Below, piece after piece: positions 1 through 12,666 of a DNA stretch of 20,513 bases. The position numbers and the translations under genes were made by a program. The notes below the pieces were generated by a model that was not told the DNA's origin, searched no databases, and saw nothing but the letters and a program-made list of their open reading frames with translations. This DNA comes from Myxococcales bacterium (GTDB lineage Bacteria > Myxococcota_A > Polyangia > Nannocystales > Nannocystaceae), in NCBI GenBank assembly GCA_031404295.1, contig JANNHJ010000361.1:1-20513 (forward strand), given 5' to 3'. Each line of letters starts with the position of its first letter. The stretch's first letter is position 1.

Positions 1-1692
1 CCAACCGAAGTCGATGACTTCGGCGACATCGATTTCGACGAGGAGCCCGCCGCGGCAGCACCACCGCCGCCGCCACCACCCGCCAACAAGGCCGGCAAGA
101 CCAAGGGCGACACGATCGATCTGGGCGAGGAGACCGACGCCGCGTTCGCAGCCCTGACCTTCGATGACGACGACGAGATGCCGCTCGAGCCCGAGCCCGC
201 GACCGAGCCTGTGCCGCCGGAGGCCGAGCCTGAGCCCGAAGTGGTCCCTGAGCCTGAGCCCGAAGTGGTCCCTGAGCCTGAGCCAGAGCCTGAGCCAGAG
301 CCAGCTCCCGCGGTCAACGAGCTCGAGGTCGCGCTGACCCCCGAGACGCGCGAGGCCGAGGCGCCCGAGCCGGTCGACCACGAGAACTCGGGCGATCGCC
401 TGTCGGGCCGGCGCGAGCTGCTGCGGCTGCGCTCGGAGCTCAACAAAAAGGACCGCGAGCTGCTCTCGCTCCGCAACGAACTCGAGCAGCGCGAACGGGC
501 GATCCTCGACGCCAAGCAAAAGAACCGGCAGCTCGAGGAGACCGCCAGCGAGGCCGAATCACGCGCCCTGGCCCTCGAAGAACAGGTCATCTCGGCCCAG
601 GAAGAGGCCGATGCGGCGACCCGCAACACCGAGACCCAGCGCAAGCGCGAAGAAGGGTTCAAGACCCGTCTCGATGCCGCGCAAAAGAAGACCAAAGAGC
701 TCGAGACCCAACTCGACGCCGCCGACAAGCAGGTCGCCGAGCTGAGCGGTCAAACCAGCGCGCTGGAGGCCAAGTTCGAACTCGCTCAGCAGCAGTTGAG
801 CCAGCGCGACGAGCAGGCGGTCGAGGCCGAGCAAGAGCGCGACACCCTGGCCGGTGAGCTCAACGAGTTCAAGGCTGCTGCCGAGGCCGCGGGTGGCAAG
901 CTCGCGGCGGCCGAAGCCGCGCGCCAAGCAGTCGAAGCTCGGTTGGCGATCGTCGAGGGCCAGCAGCGCGCGCTCGAGGCTGATCAGGGTGACGTTCAGA
1001 CCAAGCTGAGCGAGACCCAGGCCACGCTGAGCGAGGCTCGGACCAAACTGGCCGAGACCGAGTCCAGGTTGAGCGAGACCGAAACCACGCTCGCCGAGAC
1101 CCAGGCCAAGCTGGCCGAGACCGAGACCACGCTCGCCGAGACCAAGACCAAACTGGCCGAGACCGAGACCAGCTCGAGCGAAGCGCAGGCCAAGTTGGCC
1201 GAGGCCGAGCTGCGTGGGCAGTCGCTGACCAGCGAGCTCGCGCTGCTGGGCACTGCCAAGCAAGCGGTTCAACAGCAGCTCGGCGAGCTCGAACAGACCA
1301 GCCAGGCCAACGCGACCCAGCACGACCTCAAGGTTGCGGAGCTCGAGGAAAAGCTGGCCAGTCAAGCCGAGGACTTGCAGTCCGAGCTCGAGTTCCTCGA
1401 GAAGCAGGCCGACCAATTGCGCGGGCAGTTGACCGAGGCGAGCCAGGCGGCCACGACCGCGGCGGAGTCTGCCGAGTCCGAGCGCAAGGTCCTGGAGGTC
1501 GAGCTGGCCAGCGCTCGCGAGGCGAGCCAAACCGCTCAGGTCGAGACCCAGGCTCTGCGCGAGCGCTTCGAACACAGCCTCACCGATCTCGAGGCCCGCC
1601 AGCAGGAGCTCGAGAGCCAGTTGGCCGCTCGCAGCGACGCCGCTCGGCGAGCCCAGCAGGCGCTGGCCGTGGCCCTGAAAGTTTTGGAGTGA
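1..1692 (+). CDS. Coiled-coil protein, 5'-partial (the frame is open to the window edge). It has an acidic Pro/Glu-rich (PEPEPEVVP) N-terminal linker, then about 400 aa of Ala/Glu/Gln/Leu-rich heptad coiled coil that includes LAETETT heptad tandem repeats.
   Basis: The frame is open from base 1 to TGA 1690-1692. GC3 is strongly high in this frame. The heptad periodicity and EPEP repeats are visible in the translation. The antisense 558-aa ORF is Arg/Gly-rich junk. No family assignment is possible without a search. Confidence 0.8.
   Translation, partial: PTEVDDFGDIDFDEEPAAAAPPPPPPPANKAGKTKGDTIDLGEETDAAFAALTFDDDDEMPLEPEPATEPVPPEAEPEPEVVPEPEPEVVPEPEPEPEPEPAPAVNELEVALTPETREAEAPEPVDHENSGDRLSGRRELLRLRSELNKKDRELLSLRNELEQRERAILDAKQKNRQLEETASEAESRALALEEQVISAQEEADAATRNTETQRKREEGFKTRLDAAQKKTKELETQLDAADKQVAELSGQTSALEAKFELAQQQLSQRDEQAVEAEQERDTLAGELNEFKAAAEAAGGKLAAAEAARQAVEARLAIVEGQQRALEADQGDVQTKLSETQATLSEARTKLAETESRLSETETTLAETQAKLAETETTLAETKTKLAETETSSSEAQAKLAEAELRGQSLTSELALLGTAKQAVQQQLGELEQTSQANATQHDLKVAELEEKLASQAEDLQSELEFLEKQADQLRGQLTEASQAATTAAESAESERKVLEVELASAREASQTAQVETQALRERFEHSLTDLEARQQELESQLAARSDAARRAQQALAVALKVLE
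226..306 (+). repeat. Perfect 24-nt tandem duplication (gagcctgagcccgaagtggtccct, copies at 226-249 and 250-273, encoding EPEPEVVP), followed by gagcc(t/a) hexamer repeats (EP)n.
   Basis: Read directly from the sequence. The two copies are identical at the nucleotide level. Confidence 0.9.
1006..1215 (+). repeat. About eight to ten tandem 21-nt (heptad) repeats encoding L-(S/A)-E-T-x-x-x units (TLSEARTK / LAETESR / LSETETT / LAETQAK / LAETETT / LAETKTK / LAETETS ...) inside the coiled-coil gene.
   Basis: The 21-nt periodicity of ctggccgagaccgagaccacg-like units is visible in the sequence. It degenerates toward 1215. Confidence 0.8.
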
Positions 1693-1707
1693 TCCCGCTC
1701 GGCGCGG

Positions 1708-1924
1708 GTGACCTCGATTCGATCTCTGATGACTGACGTCGTTCACGGCGAGACCTCCAGCCTCAAGCCCAGTCAAGCCAAAGCCCTGGCTCGGCTGGCC
1801 GAACGGGGAGTTCCGGCCGATCGATTGATCAGCCCTCCGCTCGCCCGCGACCTGCTCGAGCTCTCGCACGAGCTCAACCGCCGGATCGGCTTGTTCATCG
1901 ATCGGCGGGGGGCGGATCAGTCGG
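1708..1924 (+). CDS. Frame-1 coding segment (MTDVVHGETSSLKPSQAKALARLAERGVPADRLISPPLARDLLELSHELNRRIGLFIDRRG). It most likely is the N-terminal extension of the downstream HflX gene, and it falls out of frame at the G6 run 1909-1914. ATG 1729 is an alternative start to GTG 1708.
   Basis: GC3 is high in frame 1 up to about 1920 and then collapses. The frame-1 translation turns into Arg/Pro-rich junk after 1921 and has no stop until 2292. Frame 2 becomes protein-like and high-GC3 from about 1916. Confidence 0.4.
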
Positions 1925-3511
1925 GTGATCCTCGGCGATGCGCACAGCCTCGAGCTGCCCGAGTTCGATCGCGTGCGCGGTGTCGATGGTCGTCTGCGCG
2001 GCATCCGGCTGGTCTCGACCCACTTGGTCGCCGAGGGCCTCGACCGCGAAGAGCTGGCCGACCTCGCCAAGCTGCGCCTCGACCTGATCGCAACCGTCCA
2101 CGACAGCCCGGGCGGCGTGCAGGTCGACATGGCCACGCTGAGCCCAGGCCGGCCCGGCCGCGGAGGGGGATTCGAGCTGCGGACCTTCGCCCGTGCATCT
2201 TTGGCTCTGTTCTCGCCCGATGCTGGCGGCCGCAATCAAGCCGAACATCCCCGACCCGATCTACCCAGCGACCTGATCGCGTTCTTGCGTGATCTCGAGA
2301 GCCAGTTGGTGACCGCGACCGAGGCCGCTCGGGCCGAGGGCCAGGGCACGAGGGCGATGGTCCTGCAAGTTCACACCGATGCGATGAATCGGCAGGGCGG
2401 CGTCGAAGCTCGGCAAGCCGAGCTCGGCGAGCTGTGTCGAACCGCTGGCGTGCACATGGTCGATCTGATCGTCCAGCGCCGAAAGCTGCCCGACCCACGC
2501 ACGTTCTTGGGCTCTGGCAAGCTGCGCGAGGTGTTGGTCAAGGCGCTCGAGCAAGACGTCGAGCTGTTGATCTGCGACCCCGAGCTGAGTGCGTCGCAGG
2601 CCCGCGAGATCAGCGAGCAAACCGATCTGCGAGTCATCGATCGGACCATGTTGATCCTCGACATCTTCGCCCAGCACGCCAGCAGCAGCGACGGCAAGCT
2701 GCAGGTCGAGCTGGCTCAGCTGCGCTATCGCCTGCCGCGGATGGCCGGCAAGGGCACGATGATGTCGCGCCTCGCCGGTGGGATCGGCGGCCGCGGGCCC
2801 GGCGAGACCAAGCTCGAGGTCGATCGTCGACGGGCCAAGGAGCGGATCGGCGAGCTCGAAAACCGACTCGAACAGCTCGGCCGACAACGCGATCAACGTC
2901 GCGCTGCCCGCCGCAAGACCGAGGTCCCGGTCGTCGCGATCGTCGGCTACACCAACGCCGGCAAGAGCACGCTGCTCAACACCGTGACCAATTCCTCCGT
3001 TCGGGCCGAGGACAAGCTGTTTGCGACCCTCGACCCGACCGTTCGCCGAGTCCGGTTTCCGCACGATCGCGAGATTGTCTTGCTCGATACGGTTGGGTTC
3101 ATCCGCGACTTGCCACCCGCGCTGCGCCAGGCGTTTGCGGCCACGCTCGAAGAGATCGCCGACGCCGATCTGCTCTTGCACATCGTCGACGCGACCGACC
3201 CCGATGGCGCCCAACAGATCGCGACGGTCGAGGCCATCCTCGCCGAGCTCGGGGCCGGCGGCGTCGAGCGCTTCATGGTGTTCAACAAGTGCGATCGCTT
3301 GCCGGCCGAGCAGCAGCTCGACCCCGAGACTCTGCCGACCAACCATTTTCAGATCAGCGCGCTCGATCGGCGAAGCACTCGGCGGTTGATGGACGCGATC
3401 GAGCGTCACCTGTGGGTGCGCGGCAAGGTCGAGCGCGGCCCGGCCGGGCCGCTGAAGGTCGAGGCGGGCGAGCTCGCGTTGGCGCCCGAACCCGGATCTG
3501 CGGACGAGTAG
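1925..3511 (+). CDS. hflX: GTPase HflX. Its N-terminal and middle domains contain LQVELAQLRYRLPR and GGIGGRGPGETKLEVDRR. The G domain carries a P-loop GYTNAGKST, a switch II DTVGF and an NKCD motif. The canonical HflX core starts near 2356 (MVLQVHTD). Another roughly 210 aa of protein-like sequence lies upstream, partly in another frame (see feature 1708..1924).
   Basis: Hallmark HflX motifs are read from the ORF translation. GC3 is high. The TAG stop is at 3509-3511. The coordinate 1925 is a GTG, which is the ORF-finder start and not necessarily the true start. Confidence 0.9.
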   Translation: MILGDAHSLELPEFDRVRGVDGRLRGIRLVSTHLVAEGLDREELADLAKLRLDLIATVHDSPGGVQVDMATLSPGRPGRGGGFELRTFARASLALFSPDAGGRNQAEHPRPDLPSDLIAFLRDLESQLVTATEAARAEGQGTRAMVLQVHTDAMNRQGGVEARQAELGELCRTAGVHMVDLIVQRRKLPDPRTFLGSGKLREVLVKALEQDVELLICDPELSASQAREISEQTDLRVIDRTMLILDIFAQHASSSDGKLQVELAQLRYRLPRMAGKGTMMSRLAGGIGGRGPGETKLEVDRRRAKERIGELENRLEQLGRQRDQRRAARRKTEVPVVAIVGYTNAGKSTLLNTVTNSSVRAEDKLFATLDPTVRRVRFPHDREIVLLDTVGFIRDLPPALRQAFAATLEEIADADLLLHIVDATDPDGAQQIATVEAILAELGAGGVERFMVFNKCDRLPAEQQLDPETLPTNHFQISALDRRSTRRLMDAIERHLWVRGKVERGPAGPLKVEAGELALAPEPGSADE

Positions 3512-3882
3512 GCGAGCAAGCGGAGCGTCGCGGCAGCGAGCGCCGCGATGACTTCGTCGTCGTCACCGAGCGCGCCCGGGACCAGCGTGATCTCGACATC
3601 CACGAACCTCGCGCGGGCCGCCTCGACCGCCTCGGGGATGTCGTGTTTGACATGTCGGCCGCCGGGCGAGAGCAGGGCCGACACGACGACGATCTTGCGA
3701 TGTCCGGCCTCGTGCAGCAGGGCGACGGCGTCGGCGAGCCTGGGCTCATGCGCGAGGTAGGCGAGCGCGACCGCATCCGCGCCGCGCTCGGCCGCGAGCC
3801 GAGCCTCGAGCTGTTCGAGCGGCCGTCGCCAGTCGGGATCGGGCGAGCCGTGGGCGATCAACACCAGCGCCGAGCCAGTCAT
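3406..3882 (-). CDS. CbiX-like (SirB/CbiX small-form) sirohydrochlorin chelatase-family protein, about 158 aa. Its start ATG 3882-3880 overlaps the serA stop (ATGA). Its last roughly 35 codons form a low-complexity tail that overlaps the hflX 3' end.
   Basis: The translation MTGSALVLIAHGSPDPDW...VVVSALLSPGGRHVKHDIPEAVEAARARF matches the CbiX signature motifs (HGS-x-DP; G-x-H-V-K-x-D-IP). The region 3512-3882 codes only on this strand and has high GC3. The tail 3406-3511 shares wobble positions with hflX, so GC3 cannot tell the two apart there. Confidence 0.65.
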   Translation of the reverse strand: MTGSALVLIAHGSPDPDWRRPLEQLEARLAAERGADAVALAYLAHEPRLADAVALLHEAGHRKIVVVSALLSPGGRHVKHDIPEAVEAARARFVDVEITLVPGALGDDDEVIAALAAATLRLLAYSSADPGSGANASSPASTFSGPAGPRSTLPRTHR

Positions 3883-5159: not shown

Positions 5160-7280
5160 ATGTCCGCTCTCGGCCGACCCTGGCTCGCCGTGCTGGCGCT
5201 CGCGTTCGTGCTCGCGTGCGGGGGCGGACGTGGAGCGACGGATCCGGGCTCGCCCGAGCTCGAGGCCGCGACCGAGAGTGCGAAATCGGCTGCCGAGTCG
5301 GACGACGGGTCGGACCCGCCCGCCCGCGCGAGCCTCGATGTCTTCATGGCTGGCTTCGCTCGCGAACCGGCACCGCCGAGCGAACTGCCGACCCCCGAAC
5401 AGGCCGGCAGTTGTCCAGCGACCAAGGACCGCGACCGCGACCTAGGCATCTTGATCTCGCCGCTGCATCCCGCCAAAGGCCAAGAAGTTCGAGTGATCGC
5501 AGCCACGCTGGTCGGCGAAGACGCGCTCGCTGTGCGGATCGAACGAGACGGCCAAGCGATCCCCGTCGAGGTCGTCCATCGGCTCGGCGTGCCGGCGGCG
5601 ACCATCGCCCGGTTCGAGCCGAGCGAGAGCGGCAAGTTCGAGGTCGTGGTCGGCCGGGCCGGCAAGGGCATGCGCTGCTCGAGCTTCACGGTTCGCAACG
5701 GACGGTTCCGCGACGAGAGCCTGGCCGACATGACCCGAGTCTGGCCGGTCGAGCGCAACTGGGATCGCCAAGAAGAGGCGCTCTACAGCGCCTGGCTGCG
5801 CGAGCTGTTCGCGGGGCCTGCCGACCGAGATCTCGCGTGGAAGTCGTTGACCGAGGTCACGAGCGACCGCCAGCGCAACTTGCTGCACGACCACCTTGGT
5901 CGAGCCGAGGACGACCCGACGCTCGGCATGCAGCTCGCGCCCGACTGCGCCGACACCCCCTACTTTCTGCGGGCCTACTTCGCCTTCAAGCGCGGGCTGC
6001 CGTTCGGGTTTCGTCGGTGCTCGCGCGGCAAAGGCAAGCCGCCGAGCTGCTTCGATCTGCGCACCAACGAGAGTCCGCCGGATCTCAAGCCAACTTGGAT
6101 CGATCCGGTCGCGCCGGTCCTGCCCATGCACACCGCCATGGTCGAGCACTTCTTTCGCAAGACCGTCGGCTGGGGGGTCCACACCGGCAACGGTCGAACT
6201 GGCTTTGGCGACTCGCAGAGCGACCTCTATCCGGTCGCGCTCGACCGTCGTGGCCTGCGACCGGGCATCGTCTACGCCGATCCTTATGGCCACATCTTGG
6301 TTCTGGTCGAGCTGGTCGAGGCCCGCGGCACCAAGCCAGGCATCCTGTTCGCCATTGATGGCCAACCCGACGCCTCGATCACCCGCAAGCGGTTTTGGGA
6401 GGGCAATTTTTTGTGGAACCAAGCCGACCCGACCCTCGGCGGGAGCGGGTTCAAGGCATTTCGACCGATCACGCCGATCGGCGCTGGCGAGACGCTGACG
6501 TGGGTGCAGGCCAGCGACGAGACCCTCGCCAAGCTGCGCGACTACGGCGACGTCTCGATGGAGCAGCGTGAGCTGACCCCGCTCGACTTTTACGATCGCA
6601 TGGAACGGCTGATCACCCCCGGAGTGCGGAGCCCCTTCGCCGCCCAAGAAGAAGCGGTCGACGCCCTGGCCGAGGCGGTCCGCGTGCGGGTGACCTCGAT
6701 CGGCAACGGGCTCGAGTGGCAGGCCAAACATCCCAAGGACATCGCCGAGATGCCGTGGGGGCACCAAGTGTTCGAGACCAGCGGTGCGTGGGAGGACTAT
6801 TCGACCCCGGCCCGTGACTTGCGCTTGCTGATCGCCATGGATGTGGTCCAGGGTTTCGAGGCCAAGCTCCGCCGCAACCCCGAGGCCTTCGGGGTCACGA
6901 ACGATCCGGCTGTGCTCGAGCAGACCGCGACCTACTTGGCCGAGCAGCGCGGCTTGCTGCTGGCCGATCCCGCTCGGGCGATCGAGTACAAACGCTCGGA
7001 CGGCAGCACCTGGACTCTGCACTTGGACGAGATCCTCGCTCGCGCCGAGGCCTTCGAGTCGGCCTACAACCCCAACGACTGCCCCGAGGTTCGCTGGGGA
7101 GCTCCGCAAGCCAGCGACGAGCGCTCGACATGTCGACGCCACGCGCCGGACGACCAGCAAGCCAAAATGCGCGTCTACCGAGTCTGGTTTGCCGAACGGC
7201 GACGGCCGGGGCGGGGCGACATGGGCCCAGACGTGCCGGAGCTAGCCGGGCTTGCGCGGGTCGCCGACGAGCAAGACTGA
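5160..7280 (+). CDS. Large predicted lipoprotein (706 aa) of unknown function. It has a signal peptide with a lipobox (FVLAC-GGG), an acidic linker, and then about 600 aa globular region(s).
   Basis: The N-terminal h-region plus L-A-C lipobox and high GC3 throughout support the call. A speculative Cys...His...Asp arrangement is present (DCADTPYFLRAYFAFKRGLPFGF ... YADPYGHILVLVEL ... ILFAIDGQPD). Confidence 0.8.
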   Translation: MSALGRPWLAVLALAFVLACGGGRGATDPGSPELEAATESAKSAAESDDGSDPPARASLDVFMAGFAREPAPPSELPTPEQAGSCPATKDRDRDLGILISPLHPAKGQEVRVIAATLVGEDALAVRIERDGQAIPVEVVHRLGVPAATIARFEPSESGKFEVVVGRAGKGMRCSSFTVRNGRFRDESLADMTRVWPVERNWDRQEEALYSAWLRELFAGPADRDLAWKSLTEVTSDRQRNLLHDHLGRAEDDPTLGMQLAPDCADTPYFLRAYFAFKRGLPFGFRRCSRGKGKPPSCFDLRTNESPPDLKPTWIDPVAPVLPMHTAMVEHFFRKTVGWGVHTGNGRTGFGDSQSDLYPVALDRRGLRPGIVYADPYGHILVLVELVEARGTKPGILFAIDGQPDASITRKRFWEGNFLWNQADPTLGGSGFKAFRPITPIGAGETLTWVQASDETLAKLRDYGDVSMEQRELTPLDFYDRMERLITPGVRSPFAAQEEAVDALAEAVRVRVTSIGNGLEWQAKHPKDIAEMPWGHQVFETSGAWEDYSTPARDLRLLIAMDVVQGFEAKLRRNPEAFGVTNDPAVLEQTATYLAEQRGLLLADPARAIEYKRSDGSTWTLHLDEILARAEAFESAYNPNDCPEVRWGAPQASDERSTCRRHAPDDQQAKMRVYRVWFAERRRPGRGDMGPDVPELAGLARVADEQD

Positions 7281-7392
7281 GCGAGGCTCGGTCTTGATCC
7301 GACCCTTTGGTCCGAAGACCAGCGGGACGGCCGATCGGCCGGGCACCAGAAAACGGGTTAATGAGCGCTACGAAGGGTGTAGACTCCCCCAG

Positions 7393-7740
7393 ATGTCGAC
7401 GACCGAGGGAGCGAGCGACGATCCCAGCGATCGGCGCGACAACCAGCGCTTCGACTACGAGGTCATCGTCCAGGTGACGCGTGGCGACCTCAGCTTTCAG
7501 AGCGTGAGCGAAGACGTGAGCACCGGTGGCATGCGACTGCGCCTCGAGGGCGCGCCGCCACGGGTTGGCGAGCGTCTGCGGGTCGAGTTCAAGCTGCCTT
7601 TGCTCGCCGATCCGATCCGAGCCGAGGCCGAGATTCGCTGGATCGATCGCTCGTCGGTCTCCAGTTGTGGTGTGCAGTTCATGACCGGCCTGCGTGCGCG
7701 CGAGGTCTGGGCGATCAATCGCCTGCACGCGCGGCGGTGA
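7393..7740 (+). CDS. Stand-alone PilZ-domain protein (c-di-GMP receptor), about 115 aa.
   Basis: The RxxxR motif (RRDNQR) is followed about 30 aa later by D-x-S-x-G-G (EDVSTGGMRL) in the translation. The ATG is at 7393 and the stop TGA at 7738-7740. The 162-aa ORF-finder version adds an unlikely N-terminus. Confidence 0.8.
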   Translation: MSTTEGASDDPSDRRDNQRFDYEVIVQVTRGDLSFQSVSEDVSTGGMRLRLEGAPPRVGERLRVEFKLPLLADPIRAEAEIRWIDRSSVSSCGVQFMTGLRAREVWAINRLHARR

Positions 7741-8468
7741 TGGGCATGCTCGTCGAGTCAGCCCGAGTGGCTGTGTGCATCGTGCTTGCCCTCGCCGGTC
7801 TGTCGCCGGCGTCGGCATGGGCTGGTCAGCCCGAGCCAGCCCGGCCCGCCGACCCCGACGCGATCGTCGACGTTCACGCCCACGAGCCCGAAGTTGCAGT
7901 CGACCCCCCCGAGCCTGCGACCGAGATCCCGATCCCGATCCCGACGAGTTCCCCACCTGTCGGCGGGTCGATCCGCGTGGCCGTTGGGCTCTCGCCCGAG
8001 GCGCTCGGCGACAAGCTCGAGCGAGCGTTGCTCGATCGGCTCGAGCTCTCGGTCCGGGCGTCGACCAACCCCAAGACCGAAGTCCGCCGGCTGCGAGCTG
8101 GCGCCGCCGAGGCCCGGGTGCTCTGCCGCGAAGGTCGCGACGATCTGATCATCACGATCGGCTACCTGCCCGATCGCAGCGATGCCGTGCTGTTCGGCTA
8201 CGACTGTCGGATCGACGAGCAACTCGGGATCCGCTCGTCGATCGCCGCCGACGAGCCCGACCTCGTCGGCGTGCTCTGGGCCGAGCACGCCGATCGGGTC
8301 GCGGCGGGGGCTCGAGAGCGGCGGCGCAACGTGATCTCGCCCAAGGTCAAGACCGGGCTGATCGCCGGCGCGGCCGTGCTGGTCATCGGGGCGGCGATCA
8401 CCTTGCTGATCGTCGGCGCCGCGTCGCGCGAGACCGTGGTGATCAAGGTGACGCCCGAAAATCCCTAG
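7740..8468 (+). CDS. Unknown exported or bitopic membrane protein, about 242 aa. It has an N-terminal signal peptide or anchor (MGMLVESARVAVCIVLALAGLSPASAWAG), a Pro/Glu-rich linker, a roughly 150-aa domain, and a C-terminal TM helix (LIAGAAVLVIGAAITLLIVGAA). Its start ATG 7740-7742 overlaps the pilZ stop (TGATG).
   Basis: The frame is high-GC3. The hydrophobic segments are read directly. The longer 7665 start would overlap pilZ and lacks signal-peptide logic. Confidence 0.65.
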   Translation: MGMLVESARVAVCIVLALAGLSPASAWAGQPEPARPADPDAIVDVHAHEPEVAVDPPEPATEIPIPIPTSSPPVGGSIRVAVGLSPEALGDKLERALLDRLELSVRASTNPKTEVRRLRAGAAEARVLCREGRDDLIITIGYLPDRSDAVLFGYDCRIDEQLGIRSSIAADEPDLVGVLWAEHADRVAAGARERRRNVISPKVKTGLIAGAAVLVIGAAITLLIVGAASRETVVIKVTPENP

Positions 8469-9520
8469 TCGCGGCTCTTGGGCATCTGCTTGATGTAGAC
8501 GTCGGTCTTGGCGTAGGGGATCTCGATGTTGGCCGCGTTGAGCGAGTTGTAGATCCGAGTCGCTACCTCGTCGACGACGGCGTCGCGGATCCTCGGGATC
8601 TCGAGCCATACCCAAGCCTCGAAATCCAGGCCGGACTCGCCGAGCCCACGCAAGCGAACGATCGGCGTCGGCAAGACCATGATGTGTGGGGTGTCGACGA
8701 TCCCAGCCAGCACGACCGCGCGAACCTGGGCGAGGTCACTGCCGTAGGCGACCGAGAACTTGACCCGCACGCGCTGGCGGACATGCGGGCCGCCGGTCTC
8801 GTTGAGCACCTGAGCGTTGCCGATCACCGCGTTGGGCACGGTGATCTCGACATCGTCGTTGGTCAGAACCCGGGTCGACCGAATCCCGATGTGGGTGACC
8901 TCGCCGCGCAAGTCGTTGTCGAGCACGATCCAGTCCTTCACCTTGTAGGGCCCGTCGGCGAGGATGAAGATGCCCGAGAACAGGTTGGCCAACGTGTCCT
9001 TGGCCGCGAACCCGACCGCGATGCCCAAGATCCCAGCCGAGGCCAACCAGGCGGTCAGATCGATGTCCCAGGCCAGGAACATGAAGTAGAAGCTGGCCGC
9101 GATGGCCAGGGTCTTGAGGACCATGTCGAACACCGGCAGCGTGCGCGGCTGAAGCATCGAACGGTCGCGGGCCTGGGCACTCCAACTCTGCAGCACGATC
9201 GTCCCGACCCGAATGATCGCCAGCGTCCAGATGATGATCGCCAGGGTCTCGAGCACCGAGATCACCGGTCCCGAAACGGTCTCGGGCAGCTCGAGCAGCT
9301 CGGTCGACCAGCTCAGGCCGTAGAGCAGCACGCTGAGAAAGATCGGTCGGCGGATGATCTCGACGATCACGTCGTCGAGATCGGTCTTGGTCTTCGCCGC
9401 GGCGACCGCGATCGTCTTGGCGAGGATGACCTCGACCAGCCAGGCACCAACCACCGAGAGGAGGGCAACCCCGAGCGCCTCGATGTAGGGAATGGCCAGC
9501 AGGTTGTGGAGAAACTCCAT
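8465..9520 (-). CDS. MscS-family mechanosensitive ion channel, 351 aa.
   Basis: N-terminal TM helices are followed by the conserved pore/beta-domain region ASAGILGIAVGFAAKDTLANLFSGIFILADGPYKVKDWIVL...GEVTHIGIRSTRVLTNDDVEITVPNAVIGNAQVLN. The start ATG is at 9520-9518. The stop overlaps the convergent upstream gene in a CTAG (8465-8468). Confidence 0.9.
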   Translation of the reverse strand: MEFLHNLLAIPYIEALGVALLSVVGAWLVEVILAKTIAVAAAKTKTDLDDVIVEIIRRPIFLSVLLYGLSWSTELLELPETVSGPVISVLETLAIIIWTLAIIRVGTIVLQSWSAQARDRSMLQPRTLPVFDMVLKTLAIAASFYFMFLAWDIDLTAWLASAGILGIAVGFAAKDTLANLFSGIFILADGPYKVKDWIVLDNDLRGEVTHIGIRSTRVLTNDDVEITVPNAVIGNAQVLNETGGPHVRQRVRVKFSVAYGSDLAQVRAVVLAGIVDTPHIMVLPTPIVRLRGLGESGLDFEAWVWLEIPRIRDAVVDEVATRIYNSLNAANIEIPYAKTDVYIKQMPKSRD

Positions 9521-11850: not shown

Positions 11851-12666
11851 TCAGCCAGCCTTGGCTTGGTGCACGACGATCGCCGGGACCGGCAGCTCGA
11901 TGTTGGCCTTGGCGAGGTGCTCGTAGAGCGCCCGACGGACGGCCGGCTGCATCGGGATGAAGTCGCCTGGCTTGGAATTGACCATGACGTCGAAGGTCAG
12001 CTTGTCGGGCTCGCAGTTGACGAACACGGCCTCCGGGGCGGGACTCTTCAACACCATCGCGACCGTGCCGGCCGCGGCCTCGAGCACTTCGCGGACCTTG
12101 CCGATGTCGTTGCCCGACGCGACCATCACTCGGACCTGTGCGCGCGGCTGGCCGAGCGCCGTGTAGTTGGTGATCGGCCCGCCCGTGACGGCCCCGTTGG
12201 CGACGATGATCTTGGTCGAATCCGGGGTGATCAGCGTGGTCCCGAACAAGCCGATCTCGTGGACCTCACCGGTCTTGCCGGCGACCTCGACGACATCGCC
12301 GATCGAGATCGGTCGGAACAAGAGCAGCATGACGCCGCTCGCGAAGTGCGAGAGGTTGCCTTGCAGCGCCAGGCCGACGGCCAGACCGGCGGTGCCGAGC
12401 AGCGCGACCAAGCTGGTCGTCTCGACCCCAACCCGGGCCAACGCGGTGATGATCGCCGCCGCGATCACGGCCCACTGCGCGAGCGCAGCCAAGAACCGAA
12501 CTACCGCCTCGTCGACCTTGCGATTGCGCAGCAGCTTGGTGACCAAGCCATGGACCCAGCCCGCGACGATCCAGCCGAACAGGAAGATGAGGAGAGCCGT
12601 GACACTGCCGACGATCAACGGCATGTAGGGCTGAAGGGCATCGGGGATGAACGGGAGCTCGGTCAT
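11851..12666 (-). CDS. MscS-family mechanosensitive channel, the second paralog, 271 aa (YggB-like size).
   Basis: Three N-terminal TM helices are followed by ALLGTAGLAVGLALQGNLSHFASGVMLLLFRPISIGDVVEVAGKTGEVHEIGLFGTTLITPDSTKIIVANGAV. The ATG is at 12666-12664. Confidence 0.9.
   Translation of the reverse strand: MTELPFIPDALQPYMPLIVGSVTALLIFLFGWIVAGWVHGLVTKLLRNRKVDEAVVRFLAALAQWAVIAAAIITALARVGVETTSLVALLGTAGLAVGLALQGNLSHFASGVMLLLFRPISIGDVVEVAGKTGEVHEIGLFGTTLITPDSTKIIVANGAVTGGPITNYTALGQPRAQVRVMVASGNDIGKVREVLEAAAGTVAMVLKSPAPEAVFVNCEPDKLTFDVMVNSKPGDFIPMQPAVRRALYEHLAKANIELPVPAIVVHQAKAG

Follow-up and report, generated by a model that had tools for sequence, protein, structure and literature searches.

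A long-form hflX gene of Nannocystaceae with a predicted Jab1/MPN-like N-terminal domain and a single extra G, probably a sequence error

HflX proteins belong to a family of ribosome-splitting, 50S-binding GTPases, and the protein from E. coli has 426 amino acids (aa). In mycobacteria, HflX carries an N-terminal extension (NTE) of 39-58 aa, which in M. smegmatis contacts uL16 and H38, promotes the disordering of H68-H71 in splitting and reaches H69-H71, and a review asks whether NTE-type activity is a general property of those HflX homologues that carry such extensions (PMC12493154). The mycobacterial NTE was the only N-terminal extension of HflX found in the literature searched, and neither a long-form HflX nor a combination of HflX with JAMM, MPN or JAB was found there. 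Here we describe an hflX gene on the forward (+) strand of contig JANNHJ010000361.1 from a Myxococcales bacterium of the Nannocystaceae (assembly GCA_031404295.1), the whole 20,513 nucleotides (nt) of which are called the window in this text. Like E. coli HflX, the product has a complete HflX core, but about 208 extra N-terminal residues precede this core as a separate domain, and the frame of the sequence as given is broken, probably by an error in the sequence.

One hflX gene with an interrupted reading frame

A preliminary description made from the letters of the window had proposed that the extension is encoded in frame 1 up to a run of six G and in frame 2 past it, and this was borne out by the translations and by third-position GC. 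Starting from GTG 1708 or ATG 1729, frame 1 is translated as MTDVVHGETSSLKPSQAKALARLAERGVPADRLISPPLARDLLELSHELNRRIGLFIDRRG, with the sensible protein ending in ...LNRRIGLFIDRRG, and past the G run the same frame yields Arg/Pro-rich junk until its first stop at 2290-2292. Frame 2 has a stop just 5' of the G run, and from the run onward it reads ...GRISRVILGDAHSLELPEF..., unbroken into HflX up to the stop at 3511. Third-position GC and a three-phase GC plot place the change of coding frame, from 1 to 2, near 1900, and past the break (1912-2292) third-position GC is 0.37-0.5 in frame 1 versus 0.8-0.97 in frame 2. The string cggcggggggcgg occupies 1903-1915 and the G6 run inside it 1907-1912; the run had been correctly named as the site of the switch, but the positions then given for the string (1904-1916) and for the run (1909-1914) were shifted by one to two bases. 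Deletion of one G joins the two frames into a single protein, which has 600 aa if counted from GTG 1708 and 593 aa if counted from ATG 1729, in agreement with the length of about 590 aa that had been predicted for the repaired HflX. ATG 1729, and not GTG 1708, is likely the true start, since all 8 relatives aligned have this ATG whereas the sequences diverge 5' of it.

The canonical HflX core (2354..3409) consists of GTP-bdg_N, GTP-bdg_M and the MMR_HSR1 G domain. In the numbering of the 600-aa version, Pfam matches were obtained to PF13167 (residues 235-321, E 1.3e-27), PF16360 (323-401, 1.3e-27) and PF01926 (409-527, 4.9e-21), and the equivalog model TIGR03156 (GTPase HflX) matched residues 216-567 with an E value of 4e-129 and 430.5 bits, well above its cut-off of 216.75. 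Both this score and the three domains in their proper order identify the protein as a member of the HflX family. Residue 216 corresponds to nt 2354, so that the beginning of canonical HflX had been placed accurately at about 2356. The translation also contains the G-domain motifs G1 (GYTNAGKST, for the pattern GxxxxGKS/T), G3 (DTVGF, for DxxG) and G4 (NKCD, for NKxD).

For comparison, 80 loci from a scan of one genome per species and one metagenome locus (L081) were used, 81 relatives in all, among which partial contigs end within the gene. The closest locus, from Nannocystaceae bacterium ST9, is 92.6% identical in aa and 87% in nt over the whole protein, followed by loci from Enhygromyxa, Plesiocystis, Nannocystis and Paraliomyxa; many from Acidobacteriota and Thermoanaerobaculia share 38-50% identity. 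Extension and HflX core are colinear in one frame in all 81 loci, and they form one contiguous open reading frame (ORF) in 80 of them. Using the repaired 593-aa protein as query, tblastn returned a single high-scoring segment pair (HSP) in one frame in 79/80 loci, starting at residue 1-7 and ending at about 520-593 if the contig is long enough. The split in locus L051 was considered as a second frameshifted case and rejected, as it coincides with a scaffold gap of 10 N (L051:3608-3617). A homologue search with the repaired N-terminal 228 aa, which had been suggested as a check, gave 12 protein matches (best E 6e-100, 78% identity) in which the junction is read in one frame; several of them, from Myxococcales or Nannocystaceae, are named GTPase HflX, and long-form HflX orthologues evidently share the extension. 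Judged from sequence, this match through the junction is far beyond chance. Across the junction, homologues read ...LNRRIGLFIDRRGRVxRVILGDAHSLELPEF... in a single frame. The proposal of an N-terminal extension fused to HflX as one long protein is thereby upheld by all 81 loci, not one of which shows an HflX starting at the MVLQVH position next to an independent upstream gene. These comparisons show that nt 1729-3511 constitute one gene, an orthologue of long-form hflX. It is an ordinary orthologue of a gene already annotated as GTPase HflX in many genomes, and the architecture seen in the window is the same in long-form HflX from ST9, Enhygromyxa salina, Plesiocystis pacifica, Nannocystis, Myxococcaceae, Anaeromyxobacteraceae, Thermoanaerobaculia and others. 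The difference lies in the extra G, present in 0/81 loci and carried by the window alone.

In DNA alignments with the seven relatives L001-L006 and L010, and again with the four closest sequences, by which L081 was added, the window contains exactly one extra base, located within the codons for R-R-G-R. It reads CGG CGG GGG G CGG at this site versus CGN CGN GGN CGN in the relatives; in the closest ones the codons are CGT CGC GGA/GGT CGG, with at most 4 consecutive G. Two more gaps separate the gene from that of the closest relative, L001: an insertion of 3 nt at 2168, which keeps the frame, and a gap of 1 nt at 3433, which is an edge effect of the C-terminal tail. Relative to L001, the conserved part of the gene thus has no further indel that breaks the frame. 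The LxELSxELNRRIGLFIDRRG segment next to the break had been noticed as conserved-looking, and indeed close homologues all have D58, R59, R60 and G61, of which R59 and G61 are invariant across the whole family. The break therefore lies within the best conserved motif (D-R-R-G-R) of the domain.

The gene as given can be divided at the lesion. Its 5' part, codons 1-61 (MTDVVHG...FIDRRG; 1729..1911, +), lies in frame 1, begins with the invariant ATG and has a ratio of nonsynonymous to synonymous substitution rates (dN/dS) of 0.03 versus L001. The G6 homopolymer with its one extra base (1907..1912, +) has as its in-frame version G5, in CGG CGG GGG CGG (R R G R). The remainder, codons 62-593 and the stop (1913..3511, +), is in frame 2 and is covered by the single-frame tblastn HSP in relatives except L051. 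Out-of-frame read-through (1912..2292, +) adds about 126 Arg/Pro-rich residues up to TGA 2290-2292 and is not a conserved product. A gene caller applied to the sequence as given would report the mechanical 528-aa ORF from GTG 1925 (MILGDAHS...; 1925..3511, +), which is without residues 1-65 of the N-terminal domain. The region is best annotated as a single hflX gene that carries a flag for a frameshift or possible error in the sequence, not as a truncated HflX and a hypothetical protein.

Past the conserved HLWxRGKVE, the HflX tail (3430-3511 in the window; compared among L001-L035) is hypervariable, from about 10 to more than 80 residues. From pairwise gaps a second frameshift was suspected near 3433 and was rejected, the tail being hypervariable in length and sequence in all relatives. 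The C-terminal tails of relatives are often very acidic, with dN/dS of about 0.6-0.8.

A candidate Jab1/MPN-like domain at the N-terminus

The N-terminal extension domain (about 208 aa from ATG 1729; 1729..2353, +) has a predicted Jab1/MPN-like fold and no Pfam model. Pfam and NCBIfam gave no match for residues 1-215 of the repaired protein, Pfam searches at E <= 10 with 56 members of the extension family gave scattered noise only, and comparison of an extension profile with all PDB sequences gave one chance match to a homeobox (E 0.02). The family, as defined by our own alignments, has the motifs RxG, GDA, P..R.R, R.RG.R, THL and LRLD N-terminal to GTP-bdg_N, and all of these are present in the window in the repaired frame; in the sequence as given the same residues are divided between frames 1 and 2. 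In a word-indexed protein database the profile found at least 593 proteins, those named GTPase HflX coming from Thermoanaerobaculia, Anaeromyxobacteraceae, Myxococcaceae, Cystobacter, Binatia, Blastocatellia and Kofleriaceae. Among 1.84 billion entries, 1322 cluster representatives were matched at E <= 1e-3 and 971 at <= 1e-10; at 50% identity, the clusters holding the domain at the N-terminus of HflX number about 1,300 and derive from Myxococcota, Acidobacteriota, Binatia and others. In the complete members P0130, P0202 and P0191 (564-612 aa) the extension occupies residues 1 to about 200 and precedes GTP-bdg_N, GTP-bdg_M and MMR_HSR1; in P0238 (859 aa) this HflX core is joined by a C-terminal DnaJ-like stretch, and further members of about 546-573 aa also have the domain at their N-terminus.

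A confident AlphaFold2 model of the homologue P0001, which is 78% identical to the window protein, was obtained from an alignment of 122 sequences with a predicted local distance difference test score of 90 and a predicted TM-score of 0.84. The modelled extension is similar in fold to solved MPN domains, which places its predicted fold in the Jab1/MPN class, a class that includes inactive MPN- domains. Codons 1-61 encode two strands of the domain, its first and the following one, with two helices between them, and D-R-R-G-R forms the hairpin turn between two strands of the model. The JAMM/MPN+ motif is E-x(n)-H-[ST]-H-x7-S-x-x-D (PMC300881). In the extension family, a similar motif, H-T-H-x6-[TS]-x-x-D, is kept in more than 90% of members (H96 in 114/122, T97 and H98 in 122/122, [TS]105 in 113/122 and D108 in 114/122), and it lies where a strand ends and a helix begins, which is also its place in JAMM enzymes; six arginines are invariant. 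However, its spacer is one residue short for a JAMM/MPN+ metalloprotease, there is no Glu at the expected position and no Pfam JAB match; where the catalytic Glu would be, alignment by eye places an invariant R51 and a nearly invariant Q52. In contrast to described Jab1/MPN systems such as P. furiosus JAMM1 (5ld9), the Jab1/MPN domain of Prp8, Rpn11 and RadC, the extension has no sequence-level match to Pfam JAB or to the PDB. In Nannocystaceae, including the window, the motif is degenerate (S/V/L-T-H-x6-D/N/S-x-x-E), and the window itself has S-T-H-x6-D-x-x-E, with other residues in place of the first His, the Ser/Thr and the Asp. In view of these differences we class the extension as MPN-like in its predicted fold and not as a JAMM enzyme.

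Whether the extension represents an uncatalogued Jab1/MPN-like family that could serve as a metal- or RNA-binding module modifying HflX on the 50S subunit, with the Nannocystaceae copy being degenerate and MPN(-)-like, is an evenly balanced proposition; binding of metal or RNA is considered because the near-JAMM motif and the six invariant arginines are kept. The mycobacterial NTE is likewise an addition N-terminal to ND1 of HflX, and the module described here would probably sit on the same face. As the N-terminus of ND1 is where the mycobacterial extension contacts the ribosome, the analogy makes an accessory module on the 50S intersubunit face the most likely role. The two additions differ in that the NTE is a short peptide whereas the extension is a predicted folded domain of about 200 aa, and no sequence relation between them is detectable. 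The sizeable set of bacteria that fuse an MPN-like domain to the N-terminus of HflX would be a natural and structurally distinct test case for NTE-type activity. In our view the uncatalogued MPN-like domain is the only part of this locus worth following up, and the frameshift itself teaches little biology, being of low interest unless it is real.

In two further proteins, P0127 (1090 aa) and P0128 (869 aa), 4-5 diverged tandem copies of the extension domain come after an N-terminal LptE-like lipoprotein domain (PF04390). The domain is thus not confined to HflX and is present in these proteins apparently in an envelope context, which counts against a purely ribosomal role.

Origin of the extra G

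With a probability of about 0.6, we consider that the extra G is a homopolymer-length miscall made in sequencing or assembly. A single G added to the run, giving G6 where G5 is in frame, breaks the hflX frame in the record, and with a miscall the organism would make the intact 593-aa protein. Comparison of the repaired frame with L001 and L002, at synonymous divergences (dS) of 0.4-0.63, gave dN/dS values of 0.03-0.12 before the break (codons 1-61), of 0.09-0.10 from there to the end of the extension, and of 0.10-0.11 within the core. From these substitution patterns it is evident that purifying selection has acted on both sides of the break as on one frame for essentially the whole divergence, with no sign of decay. 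Given the low dN/dS on both sides and the lack of a second lesion, a real frameshift could only have arisen very recently. In addition, P0012, from a 17-kb contig in ENA belonging to another Nannocystaceae-like assembly, is a translation of the same gene with several frameshifts, the first of them a few codons past DRRGRV, and public assemblies of GC-rich hflX can therefore carry frameshift artefacts. We infer that the extra base is an artefact and not a real mutation, in agreement with the preliminary description, in which a homopolymer error was held to be more likely than a real frameshifted gene.

Several observations weigh against a miscall. The other genes of the window, about 17, are in single frames with good domain matches, and none of its seven other G/C runs of at least 6 breaks a frame, so that the assembly is not generally indel-prone; this error-free remainder is equally compatible with genuine replication slippage from G5 to G6. 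None of the 81 public loci has a frameshift in this gene, and such artefacts are therefore not common in public assemblies of it. An exact-pattern scan of metagenome contigs, in which either G5 or G6 was allowed, gave 0 matches, and a 706-aa neighbour protein of the window is not on record. A protein-guided metagenome scan recovered L081 only, which is in frame and identical to L002 over about 260 nt aligned at the locus.

A real and very recent G5-to-G6 slippage in this strain or population is the strongest competitor of the miscall, although we hold it to be distinctly less probable. Homopolymer slippage is a common spontaneous mutation, the rest of the window is without frame errors and the canonical core downstream of the break is intact. 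Since E. coli can do without hflX in standard laboratory culture, a real loss could be tolerated. The full-length protein would then be lost, the product from ATG 1729 would consist of 61 native and about 126 junk residues, and at best translation might begin internally, at GTG 1925 or at ATG 2357, and yield an N-terminally truncated HflX; ATG 2357 is situated 65 nt past the frame-1 stop and about at the start of the canonical core. Against this, the gene is intact in all 81 relatives and the dN/dS values would require an extremely recent inactivation; moreover, no promoter-like or terminator-like site was found in 1500-3700, and inspection by eye shows no clear Shine-Dalgarno sequence ahead of 1925.

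Programmed recoding, either a +1 ribosomal shift on GGG-G in which tRNA-Gly re-pairs from 1909-1911 to 1910-1912 or transcriptional slippage on the run, might restore the frame in part of the products and so set the amount of long-form HflX, and the G run would allow perfect re-pairing of tRNA-Gly in the +1 frame and is loosely Shine-Dalgarno-like as a G-rich tract. We regard it as very improbable. In programmed +1 frameshifts of the prfB type the shift site is conserved in orthologues, the A site holds a stop or a slowly decoded codon, and stimulatory elements are present, a pattern that is not seen here: L001-L006, L010 and L081 are without the extra base and have at most 4 consecutive G, the next 0-frame codon is GCG, which is not a stop and, given the GC content, is probably not a rare codon either, shuffled sequences fold as well as the RNA past the site (z = 0.02), and no Rfam element is present. 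Six G are also short compared with the tracts of known transcriptional slippage. Nor does the site resemble a phase-variable contingency locus, in which a long tract, usually of 7 or more, is kept at the same site in related strains, as the G6 tract occurs in the window only and the closest relatives are without it. Still less credible, to the point of being negligible, is the view that there are two separate genes, a small one in frame 1 and an independent HflX starting downstream. Mechanical ORFs for both exist (1708-2292 and 1925-3511), and the preliminary description had allowed for a small upstream gene lacking a stop; frame 1 does stop, at 2292, after about 126 junk residues. Conservation is limited to the first 61 residues of frame 1, in every relative these 61 residues continue without a change of frame into the remainder of the domain and into HflX, and the break falls within a beta-hairpin of a single predicted domain.

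Neighbouring genes in the window

Upstream of hflX, 178-1692 (+) encodes a 504-aa protein with a Pro/Glu-rich repeat N-terminus (PEPEPEVVPEPEPEVV...), a long coiled coil and weak similarity to the crescentin rod. This coiled-coil gene is also found upstream of hflX in the closer Nannocystaceae relatives, to whose loci it is common, and in several loci the similarity extends to the cbiX/serA side. A small CbiX-type ORF (3406-3873, -; PF01903, 8.6e-20) is convergent with hflX and, as a mechanical ORF, overlaps its 3' end by 106 nt; its last ~40 residues lie outside the domain match (8-113) and may be read-through. Farther downstream, 7252-7740 is a PilZ-domain ORF, and two genes for MscS-type mechanosensitive channels (8465-9520, -, and 11851-12666, -) are located less than 3.5 kb apart. 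The 471-aa ORF at 18037-19452 (+) has MVP_shoulder (2e-28) and Vault_3 matches and resembles the major vault protein; it is preceded by a 423-aa ORF (16790-18061) without a Pfam match, with an overlap of 25 nt between the two.
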